Positions 2,059 to 44,032 of a stretch of 64,000 nt of DNA are shown one piece after another; within the stretch, counting starts at the first letter, position 1, and each line of letters starts with the position of its first letter. Origin of the DNA: Blastocladiella emersonii ATCC 22665 (taxonomy: Eukaryota; Fungi; Blastocladiomycota); the NCBI GenBank assembly GCA_025594325.1, contig JANHCV010000015.1, positions 248,001 to 312,000 of the forward strand, read 5' to 3'. The notes under the pieces are model-generated. The model searched no databases. It was not told the DNA's origin and saw nothing but the letters and a program-made list of their open reading frames with translations. The position numbers and the translations under genes were made by a program.

Positions 2059-2064
2059 CACCAC

Positions 2065-26488: not shown

Positions 26489-26728
26489 CGGATCGCGATC
26501 GCTGTTGCGGGAGACGGGAGAGAGAGCATTTTGTGGCGCGCCGCTGCGCTCTCACCGCCACCGGCCTCGACAGAGTTGACAGCCTCGGCAGCGTGTGGCG
26601 CAACGCGTCTTGCACATCAGCCGAGAGACGAGAGACATAAAGCCTCGACGCCGCACTCGCTCAAAACACTGTTGGTCCAGCTGGAGTGCGTAAAGAAACA
26701 AATATTTTTACTCCAACTGCGGCTTGGA

Positions 26729-27331
26729 TCACCACTCGGGTCCCTCCCACACACCCTCCTTGCAGTCCGCAATCCACATCGCGCGGAGCTCGTCGTCCGC
26801 CACGCACTCGTCCCACCACATGTTGACGTATGTGTCGATCGAGTTTTTGGGGAAGAGGTGCTCGAGATCAAGAAGGGCCGTCAGTTCCATGTCGCAGTGG
26901 TGGATGACAAGCTCTGCAAGTCGAGCTGGAGCGTGCGCTGCCGCGGCGCGAAGCATGTTCGACGCCAAAGCGTGCTTCCACGCGGCTTCGTGGTCTTGAG
27001 TGCTCGGTTTGTGATGCGCGACGATTCTGTGAAGGAAATCCACCGCCTCTTCAGTCCAAAGGAGGAAATCCTCGTCGGTGAAGTCGACGGCCTTGGGCGG
27101 GCACACGGAGAGGAACGCGGTCCACGATTGGACAATTTGGTCCGCGTGATGAGGCAGGAGCATCGCCTGAGCTTGGTCGGTAGGCGGCTCGCACGCCTTC
27201 CACAAGTCGTCGCCAATACAAGTAATGAGGAACCCTGCACAAATGCAGAAATAGTCCAGGAACGGACGTGAGTTTCCATGGCGGCCTGCATGAGAAAGCG
27301 TGGGAGGATACTTTGACGCCGCCAGCCTCAA
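26729..27331 (-). pseudogene. 5'-truncated C-terminal fragment of the family
   Basis: Only the last ~190 aa are present (SWTAFLSVCPP, MLRAAAAHAP, LFPKNSIDTYVNMWWDE). It closely resembles the end of 27382-29514. Confidence 0.75.
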
Positions 27332-27381
27332 TCAACTTGAAGTTTGAGCGGTATATTATACATTCAGACCCAACCGTGTGC

Positions 27382-29514
27382 TCAATCGCCCCCGTTGGTC
27401 CAATCCTCGAAAACCATGCGGCGGAACTCTTCGTCTTCCATTTGCTCATCCCACCAGCGGTTCACGTACGCGTCAAGCGAACGCTCCGGGAAGAGATACT
27501 GCAGGTTGACGAGGGAGAAGAGTCCGTCTTGGCACTGGAGAATCACGAATTCTGCAAAGCGCGAAGGAGAATGGGATGCCGCACCACGGATTATGCCGCG
27601 CGCCAAGGCGCTCTTGCGCTCGCTCGTGTGGGTCTCAGGCCCAATCAAGGAAATTTCCCACGCTGAGCGGTAGACTGCGACCATTTCTTCGCGCGTCCAC
27701 CAGAGCAGGTTTTCGTCGGTGTGGTCGACGGCGTGAGGTGGACACAGTGAAAGAAACGAGGTCCAAGCGGGAACGATTTGGTTGCCAACTGACGCCAACA
27801 AATCGAGGTCGTTGTTGGCTAGTTTCTCGGTTTGGCGGATGCATGTGCTCGCGGTTGTGAGAAATGCAGCATAGATGGTGGAATACTGCGTGTGGCTCGC
27901 TTCGCCCGCGCTAATCAAGCTCGTGAGATGATCACTGGCATTTGGGTTCAGGAACAAAGGGAGCAGGAGTATTGCTAGCGCCTCAAGCAAGTAAGGATAG
28001 CTTGCAGTTGGGTCGTTGCGAAGAATACCAATGAGGCGTTTTGCGAGTACGATCCGGGACTCGAAATCGCCCAAGCCGAGACGATTGAGATCGATAGCAA
28101 ACTCGCTGTCAGCAAATGTCGCGAGCCTGTGGGACACCAGCTCGAGAGCACCCGGCAATCCGCACCGTTCGACCGCGAACGTGATTATCCGCAAGTACAT
28201 TTCCCGCCAATCCGAGTACTTCTCGGACACGTTGTCAAGCAACTCTTTAAGGAGCTGCCCGAGCTCGGCGCCTTCCTTGTCAAGCATGAGTGGGCGCAAA
28301 TCGGTCTCTGAGAGATCTGCTCCGAGGAGATATCTCACATTCTGCGACCAATATTCAATTTCAGCGACCCATGGCCACGCGCGAGAAACCGCAACAGCAG
28401 GTACAACGTGGCCCGCTTCGACCCACAGGCCCAGCTCTCTGCAAAACAGTTGGCGCTGCATCTCGTCAAGTTGTTCGTTGAGGCGAGTGCGATCGTAAGT
28501 GTCAAATATGAATAAAAACGTGTCCAAATCGACTTCCTCTGGAGAGAAGTAGCTTGAGATAGCCAGGTACGGAGGATGTCGATCATTCGCTGTGGGGTTG
28601 CGGGGTTTCCAGCCTTGGCCTTGCAGCCAGTTGAGGAGCCGGCAAGTCGCCTCGAGTGAATTCGCGTCAATGCTTGGCAGGAACGCGCCGTAAACTCGAG
28701 GCATCGCAAGAACGTCAATGATCGAGTTTGGCCGCGGGTGCCGTTGAACAGCAATTTCAAGAGCGTCTTGGTTCCAGTGGATTGCTGCTAAGCTTGCAAG
28801 GAAGGTCAAGAAATCAACCCCAGACGGTGCATCGAGGCCGTTTGCGCTTTGCGAGAGGTTCGAGAGGGCTTCCTGCATCCGAAAAGTGCGGTCCGGCACC
28901 ACACCCGCCAGGGCTCTGATAGTGAAGCGCACTTCGAGCATGAGAACGGGAAGCGAGCTGAGCAGCTCCGTGAGCGCAAAGTCGAGCGCGATTGTATCGC
29001 GTGTTGCCTCAAAGTACAGGGTAAGGCTAATCGCGTCAGTGAAGCGCTTCGTCACCGCCGTGTGAAGACTTGGCAAGGTTCTGGCGCCAAGAAAATGATT
29101 AGCGAGCGCGCGCTGCTGAGTGGCCGTAAGGTGCGAACATGACCGCATGAACGCGCGGAACATAGTGAGATGGAGCGGAGGGCGAACAAATGCGTCAGAT
29201 ACGTTTAGACCTCGAAGCGCATTCGCCGCCATGGCACATAGTGCGGCAGCCGATGGGCTGCTGGGATATTCGTAGAGCGCAATCTCTTTCTCAACGGCTT
29301 CAAGCAACGGACTCGACAAGCTCGCCCCAACGCGTTCAAACCATACAAGCAAAGGGCGCTGATAACCGCGCGCGAGGTCCGCAAAGTTGCGGGACGCGCT
29401 CAGGATCCGCGAGGCGGGCGCGCAGAGGGCAATGACACACTCAAAAAGATCGTCCGGGAGCAAGGCAAGATTCGGGGATAAATTCGCGTTCATGATCAAC
29501 TTCATTCGATTCAT
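27382..29514 (-). CDS. F-box-like family paralogue, 710 aa
   Basis: MNRMKLIMNANLSPNLALLPDDLFECVIAL plus family blocks. The viral element is inserted 136 bp upstream of this ATG. Confidence 0.85.
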   Translation of the reverse strand: MNRMKLIMNANLSPNLALLPDDLFECVIALCAPASRILSASRNFADLARGYQRPLLVWFERVGASLSSPLLEAVEKEIALYEYPSSPSAAALCAMAANALRGLNVSDAFVRPPLHLTMFRAFMRSCSHLTATQQRALANHFLGARTLPSLHTAVTKRFTDAISLTLYFEATRDTIALDFALTELLSSLPVLMLEVRFTIRALAGVVPDRTFRMQEALSNLSQSANGLDAPSGVDFLTFLASLAAIHWNQDALEIAVQRHPRPNSIIDVLAMPRVYGAFLPSIDANSLEATCRLLNWLQGQGWKPRNPTANDRHPPYLAISSYFSPEEVDLDTFLFIFDTYDRTRLNEQLDEMQRQLFCRELGLWVEAGHVVPAVAVSRAWPWVAEIEYWSQNVRYLLGADLSETDLRPLMLDKEGAELGQLLKELLDNVSEKYSDWREMYLRIITFAVERCGLPGALELVSHRLATFADSEFAIDLNRLGLGDFESRIVLAKRLIGILRNDPTASYPYLLEALAILLLPLFLNPNASDHLTSLISAGEASHTQYSTIYAAFLTTASTCIRQTEKLANNDLDLLASVGNQIVPAWTSFLSLCPPHAVDHTDENLLWWTREEMVAVYRSAWEISLIGPETHTSERKSALARGIIRGAASHSPSRFAEFVILQCQDGLFSLVNLQYLFPERSLDAYVNRWWDEQMEDEEFRRMVFEDWTNGGD

Positions 29515-29650
29515 GGAGCCGAGTGGAGCTGCGGGAGAGAGAGCGCGCTTTGGGGCACGCCGCCGATTTTTCACTGGCCGGGCTGGACGCGTTGTCGCCG
29601 TGGTCACCACCTCGCTTCCCTGACCACATAGTGTGCTCTGACCGACCACC

Positions 29651-29678
29651 GTGCCGTATCCCTTAAGGGATACGGCAC
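29651..29678. other. Perfect 28-bp terminal palindrome GTGCCGTATCCCTTAAGGGATACGGCAC
   Basis: Self-complementary, read directly, at the extreme left end. Confidence 0.97.
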
Positions 29679-30128
29679 ACGGCTGCCCTTAGGGACTTCG
29701 CCTCTGGACTCTATCCACCCGGGCTAACCCACGTGATATCTCATTGCTTACCCCGAGTGACTCATAATGAATATAGCGATATCCTCAGGGATTTCGCCAC
29801 CCGGATCGGAGGCCGAAGGCCGAAGCAGGTGGGCGGGAGGGTGGGTGGAAGGGAGGGGCGAGCGGTCCAGGAGTGAGTCCCTGACCTGACCCCTGAGCCC
29901 GTCCCTAACCAACCCCTTGGGCTGACCATTGCTTACCCCGAGCGGTCGGCGGCGGCCGGCGAGCGCAGCGAGACGAAGAGCAGCGCAGCTGCGGCTACCC
30001 ACTGACAGAGTTCCCTGGTCTGGTCCCTGAGCACAGCTGCAAGTCGATCTGTGAGCAGTCCCCGAGCCAGTCCCTGAGCCCGTCCCTGACCACCTGCTGC
30101 AAGCGACTGCTATGAAGCCGTTCACCGT

Positions 30129-30205
30129 AAAAGTTCCACTTTTCGCTCAAAAACAGGTAGGTATATATATACACTGCCCCTTTTTGAGCGAAAAGTGGAA
30201 CTTTT
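30129..30205. promoter_or_regulatory. Stem-loop in the TIR: 25-bp perfect arms and 27-nt loop with TATATATATA (mirror copy at 43283-43359)
   Basis: AAAAGTTCCACTTTTCGCTCAAAAA (30129-30153) pairs with 30181-30205. The function (origin or promoter) is inferred. Confidence 0.6.
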
Positions 30206-30216
30206 CAGAGACAAGA

Positions 30217-30396
30217 GGTCAGGGTACGGGGGTCAGGGCAGGGGAGCGTCTTAGCAGCATCAATGTATTAATCAAAGACAAAGGGTCAGGGTACGGGGGG
30301 TCAGGGCAGGGGAGCGTCTTAGCAGCATCAATGTATTAATCAAAGACAAAGGGTCAGGGTACGGGGGGTCAGGGCAGGGGAGCGTCTTAGCAGGCA
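30217..30396 (+). repeat. 68-bp tandem repeat (~2.6 copies) at the inner edge of the left TIR
   Basis: GGGGAGCGTCTTAGCAG recurs at 30241, 30309 and 30377. Confidence 0.93.
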
Positions 30397-30418
30397 TTGT
30401 GGCAGGTTGTGGACTGTC

Positions 30419-33400
30419 TTAGGGCTCGTTGATGAGCTCGTTGTAGACCTCATCCAGGTCCAGCTCCAGGACAAACGGCGCCGACTTGGCCGGGGCAGTG
30501 GTCCAGGTCTTGTACATGACAAAGTAGTTGATGTCTTCCGTCCACTTCAGGTTAGTGTACTTCTTGCCACGAATTGTGACCTGGCGGTTGTCCTTGTCTG
30601 GCACAGCAAGGCACTTGTTAAAGTAAGTGCTGAGAAGCCTGTTTAGGACTGTTGCTGTGTCACACTTGTAATACCCAAGCTTCTTGAAGTACTTGTGGAT
30701 GTCTGCTTCAAACGTGGCGGGGATGGTGGCCTGGATGTTGAACTCCTCGGACGTGCGGAGGTCCATGCCGTTGTGGTCAAGGAGCTTGTGCAGGACGTGG
30801 GCCTTGTCCTTGGTGTAAAAGTACTGGATACGTTCCATGAAGCGCTCGGCGTTGTCGTCCCAGATGGCCTCCATGTTGTTCTCGCTCAGACCCTTGAACT
30901 TGCGGATGAAGAAGGCCTTGCGGACAGAGAGGCAGATGGTCCAGTCTGGGTCCTCGAGTGTACCCTGGCAGTGGTCGCGCAGGGTCTCCTTGGATGGAAG
31001 CTGGACGTTTGCCCAGTCAAAGGACCAGCCCGATGTCATGACATCCTCAATCTCGGGGTGCGCCTTGTAGTAGTACTCGGGGGAGTCGTCCATGACAATG
31101 TTGGCAACCTTGCAGAAGGCGTCAAAGACCTTGAGGCACGAGGTCACAGCGGCCATCTCGTTCTCGAGATCCGTGTTCTTGACAATGGCCTGGTGAAGTT
31201 TGCCGACCAAGTCCGAGTTAATGACCTGGGACTTGTTCATGTACGCGCCGTGGCAACCATTGCTGATCATGAACACGATCTCGTTGTCAATGGGGTAGCG
31301 CACGCGGTAGATTGCCTGGAAGAAGTCGCGGGCAGGGACCCAGGACTCGTAGCGCGCGTACACCTTGTCAAACTTGTTCTTTGTCGAGAAGTTGACGCCA
31401 ACGGTGATCTTGAGGTTGGCGATGACTATACGGACCGTATCATCGCCCCACACAGAGTCAGGGTCAATGAGTTCCTTGTCCTCGTGGTTGGGGCGGTCGC
31501 CGTGGTAGAGCTTGATCTGCTTGCCAATCTTCCACGTCTCCTTGGCAAAGACCCGCTCAAGGTACTCGCCAAAGGTCTGCACCGACCACTTGGTTGACTT
31601 CTTGCATGGTCGTGGGAGGAAGAGGTAGAGCTTCTTGTTGGCCTTGAGGTCGGCAATGATGTTGCTCTCCATGATGTCTTCGGCGGACTTCTCCTTGTCC
31701 TTGTCGTTGGTGATGAGGCTCATCTTGCGCGGCTCAAACTCCTTGCCAAGCGTGTTCGTGATCACCTTGATCTTACCATGGAGTATGGTCTTGATGTTGT
31801 GCTCAACAGTAAAGGAGCGGAGGACGTCCATGGTCAGGTTTGTGACAAACGCGTCCATGAAGATACCCTTGCTGCCCTTGTGCTCGCACAGCGTCTTGAA
31901 GGCCTTGAGGTTGGCCTCGAGGTTGTTGCAAATGGTGGTTGTGTGCAACTTGGCGTCCTGGAACATCTTGAGGACTGTCTCGGACTCGTCCACCACAACA
32001 ATGTTGTAGGGCTCGGTCAAGTAGTGCAGCGAGCACGGCGAGACAATGAGTCGCTTGTGATCCCCCAGTGTCTTCTTGTCCTTGATGCTGCGGTAGTTGA
32101 CAAAGCCAAGCTTCTGTTCGCGGGCTCGACCCTCGGTGTTGTGGGCCAGGGTGATGCGAGGTGTGATCCAGACCACTCGCGCGTCTGGGTACTTGGCAAT
32201 GTAGTCGCAAACAGCGCCTGTCTTGTTGGAGCCCATGCCCGTGGCCAGCACGTTGAACTTGGCCTCGGTAATGTCGTTGCAGCTCAGGAACTGGTTGGGG
32301 ACGGTCACGTCGGCGGGGACCTGGAGCGACTGCTCAAACTTGATCATGGCCTTGGACTTGAACGCGTCCCAGAACCGCTTGTAGAAGATGGCCTTGATGA
32401 ACTTGTCTGGCACCTGGTAGTCGCAGTTGCTGGCAATCTCGCCCCACCGCTGCTGGTACTTGGCAAAGCGCTGAGCCGAGTTGTCCTGCTGCGACGTCCA
32501 CGCCCAGAACTGTTCAAAGGTGACACCCTTGCGCATGGCCCAGGTCATGATCAGCCAGGTCACGTTGTTGTGGAACGCGTTCTCAGGGCTGACAGGGAGG
32601 TTTTGGAGGATCTCGAGTGGCGTGGCGTCATAGTAGAAGAAGTTGGGGTCGATCTGCACGTCCTTGAACTCGGGGATGTCGAGGTCGTAGTCAAAGCGAC
32701 CCTTGCGGCGCTTGGCCCGCGCTGCCTTGGCCTCGGCAGACACAAACTCGACAAAGGACAGGTCCGAGATCGGCACGCAGTTGGGGTCAAAGTCGTACTG
32801 GATCAGATGCTTGGACAGGCGGTCCTTGTTCCCTGCCTTGAACGTGCCGGGTGTCTTCTTGGGCTTGGACTGGTTGATGCACTTCATGAAGCGGTGCTTG
32901 CTGTACACGCTGGCGTCAAAGCCGAGCTTGACGTGGTCGGGGTGGCTGCAGAACAGCTTCAGGAACGACATGTCCTTGAGCGTGGCCGTGTAGTTGCTGA
33001 GGACAATGTGCCACGACTTTTTGAGGTCCGTCTCGTAGCCGCAGACCTGGAGGTTGGCGCCGGGGAACTGGGCCAGGATGACCTTCTTGATGACGTCCAG
33101 CGTCACGTCCTTGTTGTTGCCCGGGCAGTCAATGTCAAAGTAGACCTTGGACAGGCGCTCGGGGTGGACCATCTCCTGGATGCAGCAGTTCTTGTTGAGG
33201 AGCCCAGCCAGGCCCACCGTCTTGACCTTGGCAAAATAGTGCGCCGCCTTGGGTTCGCCATGGTTGTCGACGCCCTTGTTGATGAGGCGCTTGATGACCG
33301 TCTCGTCGTCTTGCAGCTCGGACAAGAGCTTGCGCTGAGGGCCCATGTCGCTGCCGCCGCCGTCCTTGCCACGGTACCACTGGAGACCAAAGGATTTGCC

Positions 33401-33433
33401 ACCTGCATTGTCGGGGACCGTCTCGCAGACCAT
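30419..33433 (-). CDS. AEP (PrimPol-like) primase + PriCT-like + UL9-like SF2 helicase fusion, 1004 aa
   Basis: AEP motifs YFDID, SWH and FDASVYSKHRFMK. Helicase motifs TGMGSNKT, VVVDESE, KITVGVNF and FFQAIYRVR. Confidence 0.85.
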   Translation of the reverse strand: MVCETVPDNAGGKSFGLQWYRGKDGGGSDMGPQRKLLSELQDDETVIKRLINKGVDNHGEPKAAHYFAKVKTVGLAGLLNKNCCIQEMVHPERLSKVYFDIDCPGNNKDVTLDVIKKVILAQFPGANLQVCGYETDLKKSWHIVLSNYTATLKDMSFLKLFCSHPDHVKLGFDASVYSKHRFMKCINQSKPKKTPGTFKAGNKDRLSKHLIQYDFDPNCVPISDLSFVEFVSAEAKAARAKRRKGRFDYDLDIPEFKDVQIDPNFFYYDATPLEILQNLPVSPENAFHNNVTWLIMTWAMRKGVTFEQFWAWTSQQDNSAQRFAKYQQRWGEIASNCDYQVPDKFIKAIFYKRFWDAFKSKAMIKFEQSLQVPADVTVPNQFLSCNDITEAKFNVLATGMGSNKTGAVCDYIAKYPDARVVWITPRITLAHNTEGRAREQKLGFVNYRSIKDKKTLGDHKRLIVSPCSLHYLTEPYNIVVVDESETVLKMFQDAKLHTTTICNNLEANLKAFKTLCEHKGSKGIFMDAFVTNLTMDVLRSFTVEHNIKTILHGKIKVITNTLGKEFEPRKMSLITNDKDKEKSAEDIMESNIIADLKANKKLYLFLPRPCKKSTKWSVQTFGEYLERVFAKETWKIGKQIKLYHGDRPNHEDKELIDPDSVWGDDTVRIVIANLKITVGVNFSTKNKFDKVYARYESWVPARDFFQAIYRVRYPIDNEIVFMISNGCHGAYMNKSQVINSDLVGKLHQAIVKNTDLENEMAAVTSCLKVFDAFCKVANIVMDDSPEYYYKAHPEIEDVMTSGWSFDWANVQLPSKETLRDHCQGTLEDPDWTICLSVRKAFFIRKFKGLSENNMEAIWDDNAERFMERIQYFYTKDKAHVLHKLLDHNGMDLRTSEEFNIQATIPATFEADIHKYFKKLGYYKCDTATVLNRLLSTYFNKCLAVPDKDNRQVTIRGKKYTNLKWTEDINYFVMYKTWTTAPAKSAPFVLELDLDEVYNELINEP

Positions 33434-33610
33434 GTTGTTATGATGAGGTAACAGAAAAGGTGACAGGGCAGGTGCGTTTAAACGCGCAGGATTTAGCGCT
33501 AATGGCTGTGACCCGGGAGCCCTTGTTGGCATGGCCCATGACTTGCCACTGTCCTGACCCAGGCCCGGCTGCCCTTGTGTGACCTGTCCCTGACCCAGAC
33601 ACGACCTCCC

Positions 33611-33867
33611 CCATGACCCCGACTTGGGAGCCAATCGCGTCTCAGGTCACGATCCTTGAACCGTGACCTGGGCAGCGACTGAGGGCAAAGTCACGGACCC
33701 CCCAGGAGCCCAACTTGGGAGCCAGCAGAGGCCGAGGTCACGATCCTTGAACCGTGACCTGGGCAGCGACTGAGGGCGAAGAACCAGACCTCCACCCCCC
33801 CCCCATGACCCCGACTTGGGAGCCAGCAGGGTCCAAGGTCACGATCCGCTCAAACCGTGACCTGGGC
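33611..33867. repeat. Three direct repeats, each with an inverted motif AGGTCACG-N10/12-CGTGACCT, in the divergent intergenic region
   Basis: Copies at 33644-33669, 33735-33760 and 33836-33863. CATGACCCCGACTTGGGAGCCA is also repeated. Confidence 0.85.
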
Positions 33868-33991
33868 CCTCCCACGGTCCATGACTTGCCACCACCCTGA
33901 CCCTGACCCAGGCCCAGCTACCCAGAAAAAAGAACGTTGCGTTCAAACGCACTTGAGCCCATGGAGCCTTTTTGTTGACAGTCAGTAAACC

Positions 33992-35134
33992 ATGTCGCTC
34001 GAGTCTCTTGCCTCCCAGGTCGCCGTTGCCCTCGCTCAGCATGTTGCCGCAGACGTGGTGCAGCAAGTCATGGACAAGCTCCAGCCCGTGTTTGGGTCAA
34101 TCGACAAGCGCTTCAAGGACTTGGACGCGCGACTCAAGGCCATCGAGTCACACGACCCAGATCACGGCGCTGATCAGCAAGTCACTCCCGTGGAAGTCGA
34201 CACCCCCAAGGTCAAGTTTGCTGAGCTGACTGAGGATGCCATCGAGGCATGTGTCAACGCGCCTGTGGTGGACAAGAACGGGGAGCAGGCCACGCTGAGC
34301 GACACGGACAAGACCAAGACAACTCGCGTGCTCCTTGCATTTGCCAAGTCGGGCATGGATATCCACAACGTTGATGCCGTGTCCAAGGCCGTGGCCACGT
34401 ACCGCGCGACCAAGGGGTCCAAGAACGTCCAGGGACTGCAGGTTGAGACGCTCAAGGCCCTTGCCAAGTACTGTACGTGGAATGGGTGGACCGAGCTTGG
34501 GGCCAAGTACACAGAGGCCAAGAAGCGGGACGCTGACGCCAGCGTGGACGTGCGCAAGGAGCTTGAGTCGGGCGCCCTTCCAAGCCGTGCCGTTCTGCTG
34601 GCTGCTGCGGTTGCTGCCAAAAAGTGGGACAAGCTCGAGTGCACGGGCACCATGCGCTACCTGCGTCTCTACCTCCAAGTCGTGTGCGCGACCCACAGCG
34701 ACCTCGCGTTCCTGACTACAGCCCCAAGCGACAAGTACCCGTCCTACGACCCTGAGACCAAGACGCTGGCCGGGCCAATCTGTGTCAAGACCGAGGGTCG
34801 TGGCTACGAGTTCTCGCATGTCATCGCCGACCCCAACGTGGCAGCCGCCCTGGAGCGGGTCATGGCCAAGCGCAAGGAAGACGGCTACGAGCTGCTGTTC
34901 TTTGACTACACAATCAAGGACCTCGACGACGCCAAGGTGAACACGGCCATTCGCAAGGACTGGTCCAAGACGATTGGCCTTGCTACCAAGAAGCTCAAGT
35001 TTGACGGGTGCGGCGTGCAGCAGATCCGTCGGATTGCTGCGAGCGAGAACGCCGAGGCTTACGCGGCCATTGCCCAGCGCGCCAATGAGATGGGTCACAG
35101 CGTGCCTGTCGCCGTCGCCCACTACATGGTGTAA
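33992..35134 (+). CDS. Divergent tyrosine recombinase-like protein, 380 aa
   Basis: C-terminal QQIRR...ANEMGHSVPVAVAHY gives R...H-x8-Y, and VKTEGRG supplies the Lys. The box I Arg position reads LYLQVVCATHSDL. Confidence 0.75.
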   Translation: MSLESLASQVAVALAQHVAADVVQQVMDKLQPVFGSIDKRFKDLDARLKAIESHDPDHGADQQVTPVEVDTPKVKFAELTEDAIEACVNAPVVDKNGEQATLSDTDKTKTTRVLLAFAKSGMDIHNVDAVSKAVATYRATKGSKNVQGLQVETLKALAKYCTWNGWTELGAKYTEAKKRDADASVDVRKELESGALPSRAVLLAAAVAAKKWDKLECTGTMRYLRLYLQVVCATHSDLAFLTTAPSDKYPSYDPETKTLAGPICVKTEGRGYEFSHVIADPNVAAALERVMAKRKEDGYELLFFDYTIKDLDDAKVNTAIRKDWSKTIGLATKKLKFDGCGVQQIRRIAASENAEAYAAIAQRANEMGHSVPVAVAHYMV

Positions 35135-35154
35135 CTTTTGTCTGTTGTATTGTA

Positions 35155-36267
35155 ATGTACCCACACGAAGAACCTTTGACTGCTGAACAGACCGAGTACC
35201 TGAAAGACTTGTACTACAAACGCGGCCATGTTGGGGTCGGGATCCGCTGTCTCTTTGACATTGTTGACCGCGAGCATACAGGGAAGCACATTTACCGCGC
35301 CCAGCTCGAGCGGTGGCTCAACGACCAGTCCGTGTGGCAGCAGTACAAGCGCGCACCTCAGAAGCGCCAAGACATTCGAAGCATCAACTCAACAAGTCCT
35401 GGCCGCAACTTTCAGCTCGACCTCATTGACATGGGCGAAAACGGTACGTACAAGGGCTTCCGTTACATTCTTACGTGTGTCGACCTGGCGAGCCGCCGCG
35501 TCTACCTCCAACCCATCAAGACCAAGGACAAGACGCGGGAAGCATGGTCCAGCGTGGTCGCCAAGCACAGCCTTGCACCTGCCACGATCCAGACGGACAA
35601 TGGGACCGAGTTCTTTGGCATAGAGGCCGGGACCGAGGCCAAGCACATCAAGGGCAAGGCAGGAGTGCCATACGGTCAAGGTGTTGTTGAGCGTATGAAC
35701 GGGACCATCCGCCGGATGCTCACACCGTGGCTGTCCATTGCCGGCAACAACGACTGGCCCAAGCACCTCAAGACCATTGAATCTGTGATCAACAGCAGCA
35801 AGTCGAGGGCCACAGGCAGGGCGCCCAACGAGTTCCATGACATGCCCCGCGAAACGGCCAAGGAAGAGCTCAAGGCAATCCGAGCTGCCAAGGGCAAGCC
35901 AGAAGGCGACCCTCTGAGCGCGTTGTTGAAGGTAGGGACCCAGGTCCGAGTCCGCGAGCCGTACAAGACTGCCATGGAGGCCAAGGGGAAGCCGGTCTGG
36001 TCGACAACTGTGAGCCAGGTCCAGGTCGTGCGCAAGGGGTTGGGCGTAAGCAATCCGAGCTACAAGGTCCAAGGCCTCAAGGGCTTCTACCCTCGAAGCG
36101 ACGTCCAGCCAGTCACAGCGACCCAGGACCCGCCAACAAGGCAGCGCGTAGGTCCAGGTCTTCCAAGGCTCCCTGTTGCGCGCACCCCAGTCACGCCAAG
36201 GGAGCCCTCGACCCGGGTCAGGCGCGTCCCAGTCCGAGTCCAAGAAAAGTGGGACCGCGGGCTTTAG
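35155..36267 (+). CDS. rve-type DDE integrase (Maverick/PLV c-integrase-like), 370 aa
   Basis: QLDLID, QTDNGTEF and GVVERMNGTIR give an intact D-D-E triad. C-terminal LKVGTQVRV domain. Confidence 0.93.
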   Translation: MYPHEEPLTAEQTEYLKDLYYKRGHVGVGIRCLFDIVDREHTGKHIYRAQLERWLNDQSVWQQYKRAPQKRQDIRSINSTSPGRNFQLDLIDMGENGTYKGFRYILTCVDLASRRVYLQPIKTKDKTREAWSSVVAKHSLAPATIQTDNGTEFFGIEAGTEAKHIKGKAGVPYGQGVVERMNGTIRRMLTPWLSIAGNNDWPKHLKTIESVINSSKSRATGRAPNEFHDMPRETAKEELKAIRAAKGKPEGDPLSALLKVGTQVRVREPYKTAMEAKGKPVWSTTVSQVQVVRKGLGVSNPSYKVQGLKGFYPRSDVQPVTATQDPPTRQRVGPGLPRLPVARTPVTPREPSTRVRRVPVRVQEKWDRGL

Positions 36268-37790
36268 AGCAGGGTCCAGTGGCTTTGAATGATGACCTGG
36301 CAGTCGTTGGCAACTGCGACCAACGGGATCCAGATGAAAGAGTAGCTCTTGGCCGCGTCAAGGTACTCAATGCTCGAGAACTGAAGGAACTGGACGTTGC
36401 CTTCAGCGCGGCACCCGGTGACAAGCGACACTGCAATCATGTCTGTCATATTGTACAGCGCAAAGTTCACAGTGTGGGCTCCAGGGAGCGCGCCGTTTGC
36501 GTAGTAGCCCTTTGCATGGACGAGGTAGTAGCCACTGACAGGGGGTTTGACGCATCCATTGATCACAGACGTGAACGCGCCCGCCGTGGACTGGAACGCA
36601 AAGGTGGCTGGGCCTGTCGATGCTGTGCCGCCAATGATCTTGCCGCCCGTGGTCACTCCGTTTGTAGAGCGGTGCTCGGCCTGAGCGACGTACCGGGTCG
36701 TGCCAGACCGCGAGTCAATGTACGCCTTGTTTGCCGCATCGGTGCCTGCCACTGGAGCGAGGTCAAGAGTGAGCTGCCCTGTGAAGCGACCAGTGCCATT
36801 GACGCGGAGCCTTTCTGTGCCAAGCGTCGCCAAGCCCACGACCACGTTGCTGCCACCTGCCACGAGGGAGACCCCGCCTGTGGTCGCAGACGCAATCTCA
36901 ATGTTACCCGCCGCTGTGCATGCCAGGTTGCTTCGCAGTACGCCTGCCTGCTTAAAGTCGACGTACGTCAATGTATTGGCAGCCGAGTCAAAGACAAGGT
37001 TTGCGCTTGTGGCATTCCGGACCAGGACGTTGGGCACAGTCAGTTGCTTGCCAACTCCAAGACCACCAGCAATGGTGACTGCTCCAGTGCTTGATGTCAA
37101 ACTGTCCGTCGTATTCGCAAAGGCAAAGGCAGCGCCAAGCCCAAGGGTGGACTGGGGGAGCGTGCCAGCGACCGAGGCTGCGCTCACCGCCGTGACCTTG
37201 GCCGAGACGTCGGGGAGTCGTGCCAGGTCAATGGTCCCTGCAAGCTTGGCCGAGTCAATGCCAGATGCCAGCTTGGCGTTGGTCAGGGTCCCGTCTGCAA
37301 TGCGGGCAGGGTCGAGGATCCCAGTGAGCTTGACCGCCGACACGTCCGCAACCTTGGCGTCTGTGACCGCGCCTGTTGCCAGGTGGGCTGTTCCAATGGA
37401 CCCAACGTTGAGCTTGGCCCCATCAATGCCAGTTGCCAGCTTGGCGTTGGTCACGGCCGCGTCTGCCAGGACCAGGGAGCCGACCGTGCCTGCTGCCAGC
37501 TTGGACCCGTCGATGCCAGCTGCCACCTTGGCGTTGGATATGGCACCGTCTGCCAGGGCTCCCGTCCCAATAGTCCCTGCAACGAGCTTGGACCCAGACA
37601 CGGACGCGACCTTGGCATCTGTGACTGCCAGGTCAACGAGAGCCGCCGTGCCGACCGTGCCTGCCACGAGCTTGGACCCGGACACGGACGCGACCTTGGC
37701 ATCAGTCACTGAGCCGTCTGCCAGGACCGAGGTCCCGACTGTGCCTGCCACGAGCTTGGACCCAGACACGGACGCAACCTTGGCATCTGG
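36264..37790 (-). pseudogene. 5'-truncated viral fibre/adhesin-like gene (~500 codons remaining)
   Basis: 27-29-aa repeats DAKVASVSGSKLVAGTVG..LADG.VT, followed by STGAVTIAGGLGVGK, TDAANKAYID and a C1q-like beta head. No in-frame ATG upstream of the repeats in this segment. Confidence 0.7.
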
Positions 37791-39317
37791 ACGCCCGAGA
37801 GCTATGCCAACGACTTTGGCCGCAAACGAGGTGACTCGCTGTTCTACCTCAAGCACCAGGACGGCGTCACTGGGTACGAGGTCAAGGACCTCCAGGAGCA
37901 CGTCCAAGACACGCTTAAAGCGTGGGAAGAGCACCAGGCAACGGGCAAGGTCACTTGAGTCCCAGTCGCTCCACCAGCGGCAAGCCCCAGACCAGAGGCC
38001 CCCGAGTCGGCCACGGACAGCAACAGGGGCAGCAGCGAAGAGGAGCGCGACGAGCTGGCAGAAGAGATCTCGCGAGCCCTGGATGTCATTGACAAGGACG
38101 CTGTACCGGACCACTTGCTCCCCGTGCCCGTCCGGCCAGTCATGCCCGAGCAGTACCCGGTCGAGGCCAGCGACTATGTTGGTCAAGACATTGACAAGTA
38201 CAGCGCCATGATCCCCGGCCAGTACCTGATCCAGAATGACAATGACGGCGGCAACGACCCACCCCCAAGGCTTGACGACGGCACCCGCAACCTCGTGGTC
38301 ATGCCACCAAGCTACGGCCCGGACGTGGCACAGCGGCAAGGCGTGTACAACGAGGGTCACGTCCACCCGGCCATGGACGAGGCACGCACGATCGAGGGCT
38401 CCAAGGACTTGCAGGTCTACAACCCCGAGCGGGCGCTGACAACCACGGACGACATGGAGGTCGACGTTGTCCAGAACTTTCAACAGTTTAACCAGTTCGT
38501 GTACAACAGCTACACGCAGCAGAACACGCAGAACGTCGACATGCGGCAGTTCATCACCCAGTACGAGAACAACTACTACGAGCAGAACGTGGACATGCGG
38601 CAGCAGATCCTGGTCCAGTACAACAATGACCCGAACGTCATGGCCGCGCTTGAGCTCATTGCCTCGCAGTTTGCCGGGTCCCAGGTCATGCAGTACCAGG
38701 CGTACCAGGCGCTCATCGAGCAGTCGGCGGCCGCTCAGGGACTGGCCATGGACGCATTTGCCAACCTCGCGTCCGGGATCGTGGACACGCTCCGAGCCGA
38801 ACGCAACGACTTTGTCCGCCAGATTGACGCTGGCAACCGCGCGCTTGTGTCTGAGATTGCCACGGGCATGTCCTCTGCGCTCAGCAACCAGCAGGTGCTC
38901 ATGAACCAGCTCGCAAGCGGCGTCCAGGGCGCGATCCAAGGGCAGACCCAGAGCAACGAGGCCATGACCAAGACGCTCCAAGACCTTGGGTCCAAGCTGG
39001 ACACGATCCCTGCACCCCAAGTCATTGTCCAGCCTGCCGACACAAGCGGCCTTGAGGCCATGATCAGGGAGCTGGCCGCGCAAAACAATTCTGGCAGTAG
39101 TTCTAAGAAGACCGACATGCTCCTCGAACAGATCCTCAAGCAACTGGGCTACAAGAAGCCGACCGACGCGAAGCTGTTCACAGACAAGCGGGCAGCGGGT
39201 AGCGGGCTGACAGCGCCCAAGATCCAGCGTCACCAGAAGATCCCTGAGCGGCCCGTCAAGCAGGTCCGTGAGACCCCAAGGCGCAGCGGCATTGTGCTTG
39301 ACCTCGGCTGGGACTGA
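37782..39317 (+). pseudogene. 5'-truncated Q/N-rich coiled-coil gene with in-frame TGA at 37956-37958; an ATG at 38142 could give 391 aa
   Basis: A coding-like frame (GIWTPESYANDFGRKRGDSLFYLK...KVT*VPVAPP...EEERDELAEEISRALD) is continuous with ORF 38115-39317. There is no ATG before the TGA. Confidence 0.6.
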
Positions 39318-39343
39318 CGCCCTTTTTTGTTGGCAGTCTTTAA

Positions 39344-40141
39344 ATGTACGACATTGTTGCCATTGACAACGGCTTTACGCGCAACGACGACGGCGAGCCG
39401 CTGCCGATCCCCACGCACCCGTTCACCATGAACGTCATTGGCGCCAAGGGTCAGGGCAAGTCGACGCTGATCGCAAACATGGTCTGCTTCCCGCACTTTT
39501 ACAAGGGCCAGTTCGACAACATCTGGGTCTTTAACCCGACGTTCCACGCCGACGACAAGTACAAGTACATTGCCAGTCAACCGATCCTGCGACCGCCCAA
39601 GAAGGAGCGCAACGTGCTGGACCCCCAGGAGCGCGACCCGGACCGGCTCAAGATCAAGCCAAGCTGCATCGTCACGGACCCCAAGCAGTTCATCCCGACC
39701 CTGCTCAAGATGCGCCAGGACCTGACCAAGACATTCGAAGAGTCTGGCAAGAAGGCGCTCCAGGACCAGCTGCTGATCATCGACGACGTGCTTGGGCTCA
39801 AGCTGCTGAGCCACCAAACGCTGACCAACTTTCTGTGCAACTCGCGGCACTTGAAGATCAGCTGCATCATTGGCGTCCAGCGGTGGTGTGCCCTGCCCAA
39901 GACCCTGCGTATCAACTGCAGCTACAGCGTGGTCTACCCAATCTATGACAAGACCGAGGTCCAGACGCTGCACAAGGAGATTGGGTCGCAGTTCGACCTC
40001 AAGGAGTTTGAGGCCATCATTGAACAGCTCTTTGACACGCGTACTGGCAACACGAAGCGACGCTTCCTGGGCGTCAACAACCAGAACCCGCCCAAGTACC
40101 GGCTCGTAGACAGCTTCAGCGAGTGGATCGTGAAGCAGTAG
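39344..40141 (+). CDS. A32-like (FtsK-HerA) genome-packaging ATPase, 265 aa
   Basis: Walker A GAKGQGKS, Walker B LLIIDD, and SRHLKIS....Q....LPKTLRIN. Confidence 0.93.
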   Translation: MYDIVAIDNGFTRNDDGEPLPIPTHPFTMNVIGAKGQGKSTLIANMVCFPHFYKGQFDNIWVFNPTFHADDKYKYIASQPILRPPKKERNVLDPQERDPDRLKIKPSCIVTDPKQFIPTLLKMRQDLTKTFEESGKKALQDQLLIIDDVLGLKLLSHQTLTNFLCNSRHLKISCIIGVQRWCALPKTLRINCSYSVVYPIYDKTEVQTLHKEIGSQFDLKEFEAIIEQLFDTRTGNTKRRFLGVNNQNPPKYRLVDSFSEWIVKQ

Positions 40142-40181
40142 ACTCTTGACTTTTTTTTGTTGCCGAGTCCTAAACTAAACC

Positions 40182-41402
40182 ATGTCCAGTACCAACGCCC
40201 AGTTCTTGCAGGTCCTGTCCAAGACTCTCCCTCCCGAGATGTCGTTCAACCTGCCCAAGGAGTCCGTCTATGCCGAGCGCCAGACCGTCCAGTTCACGGC
40301 TCAGGGCGGCCCCGAGTTTGCTCCTGGCAACAGCATCAGCGTCCTGCTCCCGCCGCGCGACGACATGATGGACACGCACTGTACTTTCCTGCAGTTCTCG
40401 GCCAAGACCACGGACGCCAACGTTGCTTTCTGCGATGGTATCTTCAGCGTCATTGACCGTGTCCGCATCTACAGCGCGTCTGGTGCCCTACTCGAAGAGC
40501 TCCCGTACTACAACCTGCGTCAGCGCATCGAGGCCGACGTGACGGTCCCCCAGTACCTCAAGGACTCGTGTCTTGGTGTGGCACAGGGCTACTTTGCGTC
40601 CGGCGCTGACAAGTTCGCCGTCTCGTCCGGGCTGCACCGGTACATGCTGCCCATCAAATCCGCCCTGCTGGCAAACCAGAAGCACCTCCCAATGAAGTAC
40701 ACGGGCGGCATCCGCGTCGAGTTCACCCTTGCACCTGGCAGCGACGCCTGCGTGGTCAAGAACAATGCAATCCCGGGCTACACAGTCAAGGACGTCTGCA
40801 TTGTCTCGGACCTGATCAAGCTCAACGACCAGCAGATCGCGGTCATGGACGCGGCCTTCAAGAAGCAGGGCCTCAAGCTCTTTGGCACGACCTACAACCA
40901 CCACTTCCTGAACTACTCGGTGCCCAACTCGACGCTCAACATCTCAGACCGCTCGGCCTCACAGAAAGACATCCTGCTGTCGTTCCGCGACAATGCCGTG
41001 CTCAACGACAATGCCAAGGACTCGTTCCTTCGTGCCAAGACCATTACATCGTACCAGTTCAGCGTGGCCGGCCGACTCTTCCCTCAGCGACCCATCCGCT
41101 GTGACGACTACGCGTCCGAGGCGTTCGTTGAGCTGACCAATGCCTTCCATGGCCACGTCATTGGCGCTGGCCTCACAGTCGACAAGTTCAACGCGCTGGC
41201 CGAGGGTACCTTTGTTGTCGGCCGTGACCTCAAGTCGAGTCGCACCGTGGTCAGCGGCGACAAGTCTTGCAAGAGCCAGGCCGTGGACATGCAGGTGATC
41301 CTGACTTCAAGCGTGGCCCCAAACCAGCGCGTGGACGCCTTCATTGGCATCGACGTGGTCTACAAGTTCCTGCCAACCAGCGAGATCAACATCTACAAGT
41401 AA
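40182..41402 (+). CDS. Major capsid protein, probably double jelly-roll, 406 aa
   Basis: Size, alternating beta-strand pattern, YQFSVAGRLFPQRPI and FVVGRDL..S...SG as in PLV-type MCPs, and position next to the ATPase. Not confirmed by structure search. Confidence 0.78.
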   Translation: MSSTNAQFLQVLSKTLPPEMSFNLPKESVYAERQTVQFTAQGGPEFAPGNSISVLLPPRDDMMDTHCTFLQFSAKTTDANVAFCDGIFSVIDRVRIYSASGALLEELPYYNLRQRIEADVTVPQYLKDSCLGVAQGYFASGADKFAVSSGLHRYMLPIKSALLANQKHLPMKYTGGIRVEFTLAPGSDACVVKNNAIPGYTVKDVCIVSDLIKLNDQQIAVMDAAFKKQGLKLFGTTYNHHFLNYSVPNSTLNISDRSASQKDILLSFRDNAVLNDNAKDSFLRAKTITSYQFSVAGRLFPQRPIRCDDYASEAFVELTNAFHGHVIGAGLTVDKFNALAEGTFVVGRDLKSSRTVVSGDKSCKSQAVDMQVILTSSVAPNQRVDAFIGIDVVYKFLPTSEINIYK

Positions 41403-41443
41403 CGGCCCTGTCCTTTCTTTTCTTGCATAGAGTTAAACCCGCC

Positions 41444-41710
41444 ATGATCTTCCGTAACCTCTGGACCAACTTTAGCAATGTGCTCGGCCAGGTCGGGTCC
41501 TTTGTCAACAAACACATGCCGACTGTCCTCAAAGGCGTCAAGACCGTGTCCAAGTTCTTTGAGCGGTCGCACAACCCCGCCGTGAGCTCCATTGCGCAGA
41601 TGGTGACCAAGGGCGCGGACCTTGCCCAAGACATTCACACCTGGTACAACCAACCGACGAGCGAGATCTTTGAGGCAGACGCTGACGACACGGGGACAGC
41701 TGTACAATAA
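41444..41710 (+). CDS. 88-aa protein with N-terminal amphipathic helices
   Basis: ATG in the element's typical T-rich context. Sequence LWTNFSNVLGQVGSFVNKHMPTVLKGVKTVSKFF with an acidic tail. Confidence 0.7.
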   Translation: MIFRNLWTNFSNVLGQVGSFVNKHMPTVLKGVKTVSKFFERSHNPAVSSIAQMVTKGADLAQDIHTWYNQPTSEIFEADADDTGTAVQ

Positions 41711-41728
41711 ATTGTTGTCTTTGTTTAA

Positions 41729-42460
41729 ATGTCCGAGTACAAGACGCTGACCATCTGCAGCCGCGACCTCAAGAACGGCATCCTGTACCTACCACGACCC
41801 CTGTCCGTGCGCGGCGTCAAGGTCAACTCGGCGTACCTCTGCAACAGCTGGCACAAGGCCAACAAAGTGTACCTGACCCAGAGCCGTGGCGCGCTGACGT
41901 TCCCGGGCACCATCACCGTCCCTGATGGCAACTACACGGTCGAGACGTTCACGGCCACGCTCAAGAGCCTGCTCAACAACGCGCCCTCAGCGTACCTCTG
42001 GCAGGGCACATGGGACGTCCAGGTTGACTCGACTACCCAGAAGATGCGCCTGGCCAACGACACGGTTGACTTTACAATTGGAACAGGGACGGCGTCGCTG
42101 AACGTCCACATGGGCTTTGTTGGAGCGTATGGCTACAGCAAGGTCCAGTACGCGTCGGCGCTGGTCAACATCTCGCCCATCAACCTGCTTCACGTCTACT
42201 CGCGCAACCTTGGCACCCGGCTTGCGGACAACATGTACAGCGCGTACCCACAAGACAACGGCGTACTTTGTAGCATCCACGTCATGCAACCCTTTGGCAG
42301 CTGGTTCGAGCATCGACCACACATGGGTGACTACTTTCGCTTTGACGCGCAGGGACAGGCCCAGCAGATTGACTGTATTGACATTGACGTGGTAGATGAG
42401 AACCTGCGCTCTGTCGACTTTCTCGGCCAACCCTTCTACGTCGAGCTCGCGTTCATCTGA
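41729..42460 (+). CDS. Minor capsid (penton-like) protein, 243 aa
   Basis: ITVPDGNY and C-terminal IDIDVVDENLRSVDFLG, typical of Maverick/PLV single jelly-roll pentons. Confidence 0.75.
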   Translation: MSEYKTLTICSRDLKNGILYLPRPLSVRGVKVNSAYLCNSWHKANKVYLTQSRGALTFPGTITVPDGNYTVETFTATLKSLLNNAPSAYLWQGTWDVQVDSTTQKMRLANDTVDFTIGTGTASLNVHMGFVGAYGYSKVQYASALVNISPINLLHVYSRNLGTRLADNMYSAYPQDNGVLCSIHVMQPFGSWFEHRPHMGDYFRFDAQGQAQQIDCIDIDVVDENLRSVDFLGQPFYVELAFI

Positions 42461-42491
42461 CGTTGACTTTAATTGTTGTTGTACTGTAAAC

Positions 42492-42593
42492 ATGATCCTC
42501 GAGACGCTCCTTGTTGCCACCAACGCCCTGATCCTTGTAGCCAACCTGGCCATTGTCGGGTACACAAGCAAAGTATTCCGCGCCGTAGAGTAA
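42492..42593 (+). CDS. 33-aa hydrophobic single-pass peptide
   Basis: MILETLLVATNALILVANLAIVGY, preceded by TTGTTG...TAAAC as in the other element genes. Confidence 0.5.
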   Translation: MILETLLVATNALILVANLAIVGYTSKVFRAVE

Positions 42594-42601
42594 GCAACGA
42601 C

Positions 42602-42799
42602 ATGTGCTTTAAATTCTTTCTGCGAAGGCATAGTAAGACACAGGACAATGAATACTGGCTCTACTGCATCAACGCCCCACGCACCTTCCACGAGCATCCC
42701 TTGGACTGGCCGTCCAGGCCCCCAGTCGACAGCCAACTACACGGCCATCCGCGACGTGGCCCTGCCAGGTGCCAAGGTTGTGTACACTGTCTGCTTTGA
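42602..42799 (+). CDS. 65-aa hypothetical protein with C-terminal CQGCVHC
   Basis: ATG 8 nt after the previous stop, in the same compact packing. Confidence 0.35.
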   Translation: MCFKFFLRRHSKTQDNEYWLYCINAPRTFHEHPLDWPSRPPVDSQLHGHPRRGPARCQGCVHCLL

Positions 42800-42853
42800 A
42801 TAGATCCTTCAAGTTAACTTGGTTAGCTACCTTGAAGCCTTCACTGGTCGCTC

Positions 42854-43006
42854 TCAGACTACCCGGCGGTATGTGTACTTGTGCCTGCAGCATGGGTACA
42901 CAACTTGGACCCACAGCAGCTCATTGTCATGGACCCAGCTGGGAGCATCATAGTGATCGCATGGCGGCTTGGGCAGGGGGACGATCTCTTTGATACAGCC
43001 TCGCAT
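42854..43006 (-). CDS. 50-aa Cys/His-containing hypothetical protein
   Basis: The ATG is preceded by the element motif TTTGTTG...GTAACT. Confidence 0.35.
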   Translation of the reverse strand: MRGCIKEIVPLPKPPCDHYDAPSWVHDNELLWVQVVYPCCRHKYTYRRVV

Positions 43007-43074
43007 AGTTACAGTAGTCCAACAAAGTTTAAATTGACAAACGCATTCAACGCACTTGGCATGACGTAGCAACG

Positions 43075-43206
43075 GGCACCCCCGACCCTCCTTGACCCGG
43101 CACCCCCGACCTGGCACCCCTGACCTGGCACCCCCGACCCTCCTTGACCCGGCACCCCCGACCTGGCACCCCCGACCCTCCTTGACCCGGCACCCCCGAC
43201 CTGGCA
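43075..43206 (+). repeat. Composite tandem repeat of 24-bp and 14-bp units (24-14-14-24-14-24-14)
   Basis: GGCACCCCCGACCCTCCTTGACCC and GGCACCCCCGACCT, read directly. Confidence 0.92.
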
Positions 43207-43230
43207 TGCCCCTTCCTGCTAAGACGCTGC

Positions 43231-43837
43231 CTGCTAAGACGCTCCCCTGCCCTGACCCCCGTACCCTGACCTCTTGTCTCTGAAAAGTTCCACTTTTCGC
43301 TCAAAAAGGGGCAGTGTATATATATACCTACCTGTTTTTGAGCGAAAAGTGGAACTTTTACGGTGAACGGCTTCATAGCAGTCGCTTGCAGCAGGTGGTC
43401 AGGGACGGGCTCAGGGACTGGCTCGGGGACTGCTCACAGATCGACTTGCAGCTGTGCTCAGGGACCAGACCAGGGAACTCTGTCAGTGGGTAGCCGCAGC
43501 TGCGCTGCTCTTCGTCTCGCTGCGCTCGCCGGCCGCCGCCGACCGCTCGGGGTAAGCAATGGTCAGCCCAAGGGGTTGGTTAGGGACGGGCTCAGGGGTC
43601 AGGTCAGGGACTCACTCCTGGACCGCTCGCCCCTCCCTTCCACCCACCCTCCCGCCCACCTGCTTCGGCCTTCGGCCTCCGATCCGGGTGGCGAAATCCC
43701 TGAGGATATCGCTATATTCATTATGAGTCACTCGGGGTAAGCAATGAGATATCACGTGGGTTAGCCCGGGTGGATAGAGTCCAGAGGCAAAGTCCCTAAG
43801 GGCAGCCGTGTGCCGTATCCCTTAAGGGATACGGCAC
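43231..43837 (-). repeat. Right terminal inverted repeat (607 bp) ending in the palindrome (43810-43837; extends to 32 bp, 43808-43839)
   Basis: Reverse complement of 29651-30257. Confidence 0.95.
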
Positions 43838-44032
43838 ACCGATTGGCTCCATAACTTGGCGCATTCTACTTTTTGGTCAAGCCACTGTGCGCTGAACGGC
43901 CAGGGGTGAGAAGGGTTTGAGACTTCTGCGGCCGCGCTGGAACGGCCGCGCCTCTCGCATCTGCCCACGCACAGGCCAGGCAATTAACAAATAATATTCA
44001 GTTTATCCATCATCAACCGTGGTCGTGCCGTG

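Follow-up and report, generated by a model that had tools for sequence, protein, structure and literature searches.

An integrated Polinton-like virus of Blastocladiella emersonii with an rve integrase, a putative tyrosine recombinase whose box I arginine has probably decayed, and palindromic ends

The stretch analyzed here, 64,000 nucleotides of Blastocladiella emersonii ATCC 22665 (contig JANHCV010000015.1, positions 248,001 to 312,000; hereafter the window, with coordinates counted from its first letter), contains a 14,185-bp element at 29652-43836 that is an endogenous Polinton-like virus (PLV), integrated in many copies in this fungus. The element encloses adjacent genes for a tyrosine recombinase-fold protein and a retroviral-type (rve) DDE integrase, and both of its ends are palindromic. 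The reading that we favor, at a probability of about 0.55, is that the DDE integrase inserted this copy, that the histidine in box I of its recombinase is private decay, and that the intact recombinase of sister copies acts on the palindromic ends.

The element is bounded by terminal inverted repeats (TIRs) of 606 bp, located by repeat search, which begin with TG on the left (29652..30257, forward strand), end in CA on the right (43231..43836, reverse strand), and differ at a single base, a CpG-to-TpG change at 29699. The 5 bp to the left of the element (29647..29651, forward strand) are identical to the 5 bp to its right (43837..43841, forward strand), and among the seven boundary offsets tried, the one that places TG...CA ends at 29652-43836 gave the longest target duplication. 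The length and ends agree with those of PLVs, which are TIR-bounded elements of 14 to 40 kb integrated in eukaryotes. Each end consists of a perfect 26-bp palindrome, with TTAA at the center and TG...CA as its limits, at 29652..29677 (palindrome scan and a hairpin z score of -4.97) and at 43811..43836 (palindrome scan). These two are the longest palindromes in the window, and none of 30 shuffles produced one of 26 bp. Read-level evidence was taken from assembled contigs (Logan) of one sample rather than from raw reads; in the contigs of runs X1-X3, the left junction, including the palindrome, shows no difference over 681 bases. A contig of run X4 matches the window up to 29674, inside the palindrome, and then continues into a different inner TIR (29674-29928), which hints that the palindrome core is common to a divergent subfamily as well. 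The exact 20-bp core had no match in IMG/VR, and the one metagenome match (L007, 3314-3363), an intergenic inverted repeat with 25-bp arms among bacterial genes, was rejected as chance.

The element belongs to a large family within its host. The named close homologues of its recombinase, capsid, and ATPase genes are all Blastocladiella emersonii proteins, and 24 further recombinase gene models were found in this species. For 16 of these 24, a capsid-module gene is listed no more than 8 locus tags away, with a chance expectation of 0.03 for each, and two more lie near listed ATPase tags. The contig depth inside the element rises to 16 times that of the flank, a rough figure from single contigs of run X2 in one sample. 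No paralogous empty site lies within the 64-kb window, and relatives were absent from IMG/VR locus scans with the recombinase, ATPase, and major capsid protein (MCP) as queries and from JGI metagenomes with the recombinase as the query.

The rve integrase (35155..36267, forward strand; 370 amino acids [aa]) follows the recombinase gene (33992..35134) on the same strand after a 20-nt spacer, so that the open reading frame (ORF) coordinates agree with the tandem arrangement given in a preliminary description of the locus. It matches the Pfam rve family with E values of 2.9e-6 for the whole protein and 5.9e-7 for the core, at 30.1 bits against a cut-off of 32.6, and the PFV and HIV integrases with an E value of 1e-4. 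The catalytic triad (D89 or D92, D148, and E179), reported as intact in the preliminary description, does align with that of the PFV integrase. Target duplication together with TG...CA ends is the signature of retroviral-type integrases; tyrosine recombinases neither duplicate their target nor need CA ends. The element has both parts of this signature, TG...CA ends and a duplication in the range of 4 to 6 bp, and because of them we consider it very likely that the rve integrase inserted this copy. If the DDE enzyme performs the insertion, the recombinase is left with another job. The division of labor suggested in the preliminary description thus holds for integration by the DDE enzyme, and for the recombinase it stands as a plausible proposal.

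The recombinase gene (33992..35134, forward strand), assigned by structure comparison and homologues, encodes a protein of 380 aa whose tyrosine-recombinase fold, with a core-binding and a catalytic domain, is supported with moderate strength by structure prediction. An AlphaFold2 model was built from nine sequences for the sister P0001, which is 92% identical to the window protein; its mean pLDDT is 63.6, with a well-modelled N-terminal domain and values below 50 around the second Arg, the His, and the Tyr. A single-sequence fold of the window protein itself, at a pLDDT of 37.7, was unusable. In a comparison of the P0001 model with 48,161 PDB representatives (VIA-align), the best rows were XerA with a Z score of 7.1 (root mean square deviation 10.3, 178 residues aligned) and lambda Int with 6.2 (7.8, 168), with Ndc10 at 6.0 (2.8, 86), XerD at 5.9 (2.9, 81), and Cre at 5.6 (8.1, 186) among the further rows. 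The best rows span both domains, and 11 of the first 12 are recombinase or integrase chains or Ndc10; no Z score reaches 8, so the scores are middling and the ranks consistent. The predicted model thus gives moderate support to the fold expected in the preliminary description. Foldseek gave no match in the PDB at E ≤ 0.001, with Cre ranked first at 0.19. Protelomerases do not appear among the listed rows of either structural comparison, an absence that carries no weight. The best matches in BFVD include an Aureococcus virus protein (E value of 0.0055) and a Heterosigma virus protein annotated "Tyr recombinase domain" (E value of 0.052), and the closest clusters in the Atlas, at 0.98, consist of unnamed Preplasmiviricota proteins. 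Sequence searches were less informative: Pfam and PHROG scans of the protein and nine aligned copies found no recombinase family, Pfam Phage_integrase (PF00589) matched two homologues weakly (E values of 0.005 and 0.06, below the cut-off), PDB sequence searches with the protein and its profile gave nothing meaningful, and tblastn of the sister P0008 against phages found no match. A match to LPD7 in the recombinase scans (E values of 0.003 to 0.005) was treated as chance.

The catalytic residues of the window protein are those listed in the preliminary description: box I reads ATHSD, with His235 encoded at 34694-34696, followed by K266, QQIR with R346, H369, and Y378. In tyrosine recombinases, the second Arg, the His, and the Tyr are usually spaced by about 23 and 9 residues, and the window protein has the Lys, second Arg, His, and Tyr at this spacing. 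Among the 23 sisters whose sequences cover the catalytic domain (the halves P0005 and P0049 and the unrelated 54-aa P0032-P0034 were left out), K266, H369, and Y378 are invariant, and R346 is kept in 22. The His of the HxxR motif is absent from the whole family, with Q or A at this position in all 23 sisters and R and N in two distant homologues. By this distribution, QQIR is a trait of the family and not a lesion of this copy, and of the two oddities noted previously, the alignment of homologues leaves only the box I His as peculiar to this copy, in the state expected of decay. The subfamilies are only 39 to 66% identical, with Arg as the majority state at both positions, and both Arg are also kept in homologues at 25 to 28% identity; since the catalytic set has been maintained across such divergent subfamilies, the intact alleles are likely functional. 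The adjacency of recombinase and integrase recurs in a sister with a fused gene model (P0017) and in bridging contigs. P0002 and P0018-P0020 are nearly identical to the window protein in their N-terminal part and 52 to 53% identical in the catalytic domain and thus form chimeras between subfamilies.

Box I carries Arg in 21 of the 23 sisters, Cys in the other two, and His in none. A search of 1.84 billion representatives returned five matches for the recombinase, and both distant homologues, a Logan protein (25% identity) and P0051 of Allomyces javanicus (28%), have Arg here. In the tree, a terminal branch of length 0.019 leads to the window copy, whose neighbors carry Arg. The two possible CpG transitions turn the Arg codon CGC into His or Cys. 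Across 10 Arg-majority columns, 13 distinct minor states occur, of which C, H, Q, or W account for 11 and K for one. Catalytic Arg has been lost in 4 of the 24 copies, by changes that are of the CpG type and that also affect noncatalytic Arg; two of the losses are shared, with Cys at box I in P0021 and P0022, one change on the tree, and Gln at position 346 in P0025 and P0049. Five changes are private to the window copy, of which two are of the CpG type and none creates a new Arg. From the one CpG-to-TpG mismatch between the TIRs, about 0.75 nonsynonymous CpG changes are predicted in the gene since insertion, a very rough figure that rests on one event. The observed-to-expected ratio of CpG is 0.84 in the element and 1.19 to 1.34 in five host regions, that of TpG is 1.31 versus 0.98 to 1.09, and the element is also rich in CpA compared with host DNA. 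A probable deletion near 37790, together with a TGA that interrupts the frame at 37956, suggests further decay of this copy. Taken together, these observations make it very probable that His235 is a product of ordinary decay in a single provirus copy. Characterized recombinases no longer cleave once the first Arg is lost, and for this reason, the allele in the window is probably dead. ApT is also depleted in the element, at 0.74 compared with 0.96 to 1.03 in host DNA; ApT is the N6-methyladenine (6mA) site of early-diverging fungi. The integrated giant viruses of Allomyces are described as having reduced 6mA (PMC13533422).

Given the observed anatomy, the TG...CA ends with their 5-bp duplication, the multicopy family, and the Arg of the sisters, the following course may be proposed. 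The rve integrase would have inserted the element, and the His would likely have arisen by CpG mutation after insertion, leaving a decayed and probably cleavage-dead allele that the sisters could complement in trans. More tentatively, a virus without a protein-primed polymerase would need another way to handle its ends. The 26-bp palindrome is present at both ends of the replicon as a symmetric candidate target site, whose use by the recombinase is our proposal; because a perfectly symmetric site has no direction, excision or hairpin resolution would both be possible on it. With a dimer of the recombinase bound to each site, the element could be excised as a circle containing a single head-to-head junction; alternatively, the enzyme could cleave a junction produced by replication and fold it back into hairpin ends. 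Nicks made next by the integrase after the CA on either side of the palindrome would leave a whole palindrome at both ends of the new insertion, as seen here. A bolder reading, which we offer as a speculation, extends to PLVs and virophages that carry both enzymes and lack the protein-primed polymerase pPolB: their tyrosine recombinase would be an independently evolved end resolvase instead of a second integrase. It would cleave at the 26-bp junction both to release the provirus and to generate linear genomes with hairpin caps, and for insertion, the junction would be opened after CA by the rve integrase. The idea of a resolvase acting at the palindrome was not found in the openly accessible literature, subscription papers lying outside the search; a search linking protelomerases and polintons found nothing, and one for a hairpin telomere resolvase of virophages found the phaeovirus work only.

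The comparison with known hairpin telomere resolvases points in both directions. In common with N15 TelN, TelK, TelA, ResT, and the phaeovirus resolvase, as described in the available parts of PMC13236599 and PMC13221069, the Blastocladiella system has an R-K-R-H-Y set that lacks the HxxR His and a perfectly symmetric candidate site. That His is replaced by K or R in the protelomerases and by Q or A in the Blastocladiella sisters, and the Blastocladiella N-terminal domain resembles the core-binding domains of Xer and Int, unlike that of the hairpin telomere resolvases. An Atlas cluster with PF16684, at a score of 0.96 with 143 shared features, is a lead only. By its family marks, the window protein is not a protelomerase. 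Two point mutations are reported to convert TelA to a Cre-like recombinase (PMC13221069), which implies that function can cross the line between the two families.

Several points weigh against the favored reading. The proposed handling of the ends is tentative, and a free, circular, or fold-back form was not seen: none of 15 listed joints changes strand, in contigs, which cannot show ends. The second Arg and the His are 23 residues apart here, whereas the distance is 33 in four of the five phage protelomerases compared and 28 in the other; the KxxR of the ResT/TelK family is absent, with Q/AxxR in its place; and neither sequence nor profile gave a match to the telomere resolvases, a profile comparison with six protelomerases yielding probabilities of 0.1 to 0.2%, both profiles being shallow. 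Given the duplicated dead alleles (P0021/P0022 and P0025/P0049), either an element can do without its own recombinase in cis, or these copies arose by duplication in the host. A published PLV subtype likewise has palindromes at its termini, and its authors state, in the part of the preprint available, that it does not carry both enzymes (10.64898/2026.07.28.741278), so the palindromes do not require the enzyme pair. Finally, CpG methylation in the host is deduced from base composition only, a literature search for Blastocladiella emersonii and 5-methylcytosine methylation found nothing, and His235, seen in a contig-level assembly only, may be an assembly error.

The components of the system each have precedents. 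The view in the preliminary description that such elements usually carry one integration enzyme has published exceptions in the mid-GC EMALEs and the Halocafeteria virophages. The mid-GC EMALEs (types 5-8) of Cafeteria burkhardae all carry an rve integrase along with a tyrosine recombinase, and none has pPolB (PMC8547959, from the portion available). They share with the present element the occurrence of both enzymes in one TIR-bounded unit, the lack of pPolB, a long primase/helicase gene, and short target duplications, which are 3 to 5 bp for EMALE05 in rows of the supplement (PMC8547959). They differ in being virophages of a flagellate with a maturation protease (PMC8547959), whereas the present element resides in a zoosporic fungus and has a UL9-like helicase, a capsid gene of 406 aa, and no recognized protease; the string "palindrom" does not occur in the text of PMC8547959. 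As far as the available part of 10.64898/2026.07.28.741278 describes them, some endogenous virophages of Halocafeteria seosinensis carry rve and the tyrosine recombinase (Yrec) together, which the PLVs there do not, and these virophages and PLV subtype 4 share with our element palindromes at the TIR ends beside the target duplication. Their palindromes, of which an example is 52 nt long compared with 26 here, are tied to non-pPolB replication and to particular rve integrases in a model of hairpin priming, and the authors assign the recombinase to integration into giant viruses, not to the palindrome (10.64898/2026.07.28.741278).

The order TIR-helicase-recombinase corresponds to the "end module" of PMC11296320, a source that, in the part available, mentions dimer resolution for a poxvirus homologue. 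PLVs with an OLV11-like tyrosine recombinase are described as mostly lacking rve (excerpts of PMC4642659), whereas here rve follows the recombinase and has left its insertion signature. The divergent recombinase of this element may be likened to the OLV11-like one (PMC4642659), and its nearest predicted structures and Atlas clusters come from Preplasmiviricota and algal giant viruses. PLVs integrated in Spizellomyces punctatus and Allomyces macrogynus, described in the accessible part of PMC7805220, share with ours the MCP, ATPase, and helicase genes and the integration in zoosporic fungi; the recombinase homologue P0051 is likewise from an Allomyces species, A. javanicus. In that part of PMC7805220, there is no mention of the Blastocladiella family with its ends and enzyme pair or of the 24 further recombinase gene models, a word search of the main text of the Blastocladiella genome paper (PMC9730499) found neither viruses nor transposons, and a large protist survey, according to the part available, excluded fungi (PMC10120064). 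Published accounts thus exist for each of the rve-recombinase pair, the terminal palindromes, and the PLVs of zoosporic fungi; the element joins these features, so far reported separately, in a multicopy PLV of a model fungus.

Among the alternatives, the one that survives best assigns the two enzymes to two targets: rve would insert the virus into the genome of the fungus, the intact recombinase would insert it into that of a helper giant virus, the palindromes would only prime replication, and the His would again be decay. Virophages that carry both enzymes have been interpreted in this way in print (PMC8547959 and 10.64898/2026.07.28.741278, each as partly available), Mycodnaviridae giant viruses are reported to infect Blastocladiomycota (PMC13533422, likewise), and the Aureococcus and Heterosigma giant-virus proteins are among the nearest predicted viral structures. 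However, the lack of relatives in IMG/VR and the JGI metagenomes speaks against it, and it leaves unexplained the association of the recombinase with non-pPolB replicases; recombinases have been linked to the PolA and AEP replicases, for a reason called elusive in the available text of 10.64898/2026.10.13.758929. We regard this explanation as possible and on balance doubtful.

The recombinase could also be a passenger that arrived with a swapped-in helicase-recombinase module during replicon turnover, became redundant given the integrase, and is drifting to loss across the family. Module replacement has been proposed (PMC11296320, in the part available), and such a drift would agree with the loss of catalytic Arg from 4 of 24 copies, including two losses that pairs of copies have in common. 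The invariance of K266, H369, and Y378 and the majority of Arg at both positions, across the subfamilies and in the distant homologues, nevertheless amount to long purifying selection, and the losses are of the CpG type and also strike noncatalytic Arg, which together make this explanation improbable. Less probable still is that the true copy has Arg and that His235 stems from faulty sequencing or assembly of a collapsed multicopy family. The difference is a single base, near-identical copies are hard to polish, and many letters of the window have no supporting contig, although this is to be expected since Logan contigs drop single-copy variants; against an error stand the CpG type of the change, the same as in the other Arg losses of the family, and the agreement of the left junction with the contigs. 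The exaptation of the His form as a noncatalytic DNA-binding regulator, raised in the preliminary description, could appeal to the intact and well-modelled N-terminal core-binding domain, to the duplication of catalytically dead alleles at least twice, and to recombinase-derived binders such as Ndc10 and MrpR among the structural matches, but with His in 1 of 24 copies and private to this one, the other dead alleles bearing different lesions that are all of the CpG type, and the same decay across the family, in the TIR, and elsewhere in this copy, it is unsupported and very improbable.

The large replication protein (30419..33427, reverse strand, with a start that may lie at 33532) is a UL9-like (Herpes_ori_bp) superfamily 2 helicase (PF02399, E value of 4.4e-11, above the cut-off). 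Its N terminus has what we take to be primase-like motifs (DxD and His), and its N-terminal 300 aa have no Pfam match. No ORF matched PolB in Pfam and PHROG scans, and because the UL9-like helicase is the sole large gene, the element falls outside the Polintons/Mavericks sensu stricto, which have pPolB and rve. Between the divergent helicase and recombinase genes, a repeat search found three repeats of about 91 to 101 bp, each partly self-complementary (33605..33867, no strand assigned), whose copy number differs among sister contigs. Each TIR also contains a second hairpin (30129-30205 and 43283-43359) with 32-bp arms at 91% identity and an AT-rich 13-nt loop; 68-bp tandem repeats adjoin the left one, and the hairpin is a candidate origin for the UL9-like helicase. 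GC-rich tandem repeats of 14 and 24 bp lie at 43075-43215, just inside the right TIR. No Rfam family matched the element.

Downstream of the integrase, a fibre-like reading frame with repeats of 28 to 29 aa (36264..37790, reverse strand; PF09327, E value of 1e-9) has its first Met at 36449 and no in-frame ATG upstream and is probably 5'-truncated. A gene of no assigned function (37785..39317, forward strand) was delimited by frame inspection: a coding-like frame from about 37785 crosses a TGA at 37956-37958 into the ORF at 38142-39317, and judged from this copy alone, the gene is probably truncated and interrupted. An internal deletion near 37790 that removed two divergent gene starts, together with the premature stop at 37956, is the probable cause. 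The A32-like packaging ATPase (39344..40141, forward strand; 265 aa) matches Pox_A32 with an E value of 4.8e-12, above the cut-off, and falls in a cluster of 15 proteins. It is followed by a probable double-jelly-roll MCP (40182..41402, forward strand; 406 aa), so called from its position after the ATPase and from Atlas neighbors at 0.97 to 0.98, among which are clusters where DJR-like_dom marks 10% of the members and Capsid_N or Capsid_NCLDV 15 to 24%; the recognition score of this call is under the benchmark of the tool. The protein has no Pfam match, and seven close relatives were found. A small ORF of 88 aa with no assigned function (41444..41710, forward strand; from the ORF list) and an ORF of 243 aa (41729..42460, forward strand) complete the set; the latter, for which only position and size suggest a minor capsid protein, had no Pfam or PHROG match. 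A maturation cysteine protease was not recognized among the ORFs scanned in this copy, which probably carries an internal deletion.

The insertion point lies about 137 bp upstream of one member of a cluster of host paralogues. These genes, at 1297-6917, 24434-29514, and 44332-48552, encode proteins of 560 to 710 aa that all start with a similar L-x-x-L-P motif, and the three that were scanned have no Pfam match.

The locus marks at least two dozen PLVs in a model fungus, and the element could be a fungal virophage-type system in a phylum for which giant viruses have just been described. The 26-bp site offers a short, exact candidate substrate, together with many natural Arg and non-Arg alleles of the recombinase. 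Site and alleles bear on the question, raised in a 2026 preprint, of why recombinases accompany non-pPolB replicases and also on how viruses without pPolB replicate and release their ends. If the end-resolvase reading is true, the Blastocladiella family would provide a fungal model of such viruses that can be cultured and that may itself parasitize giant viruses of the Mycodnaviridae.

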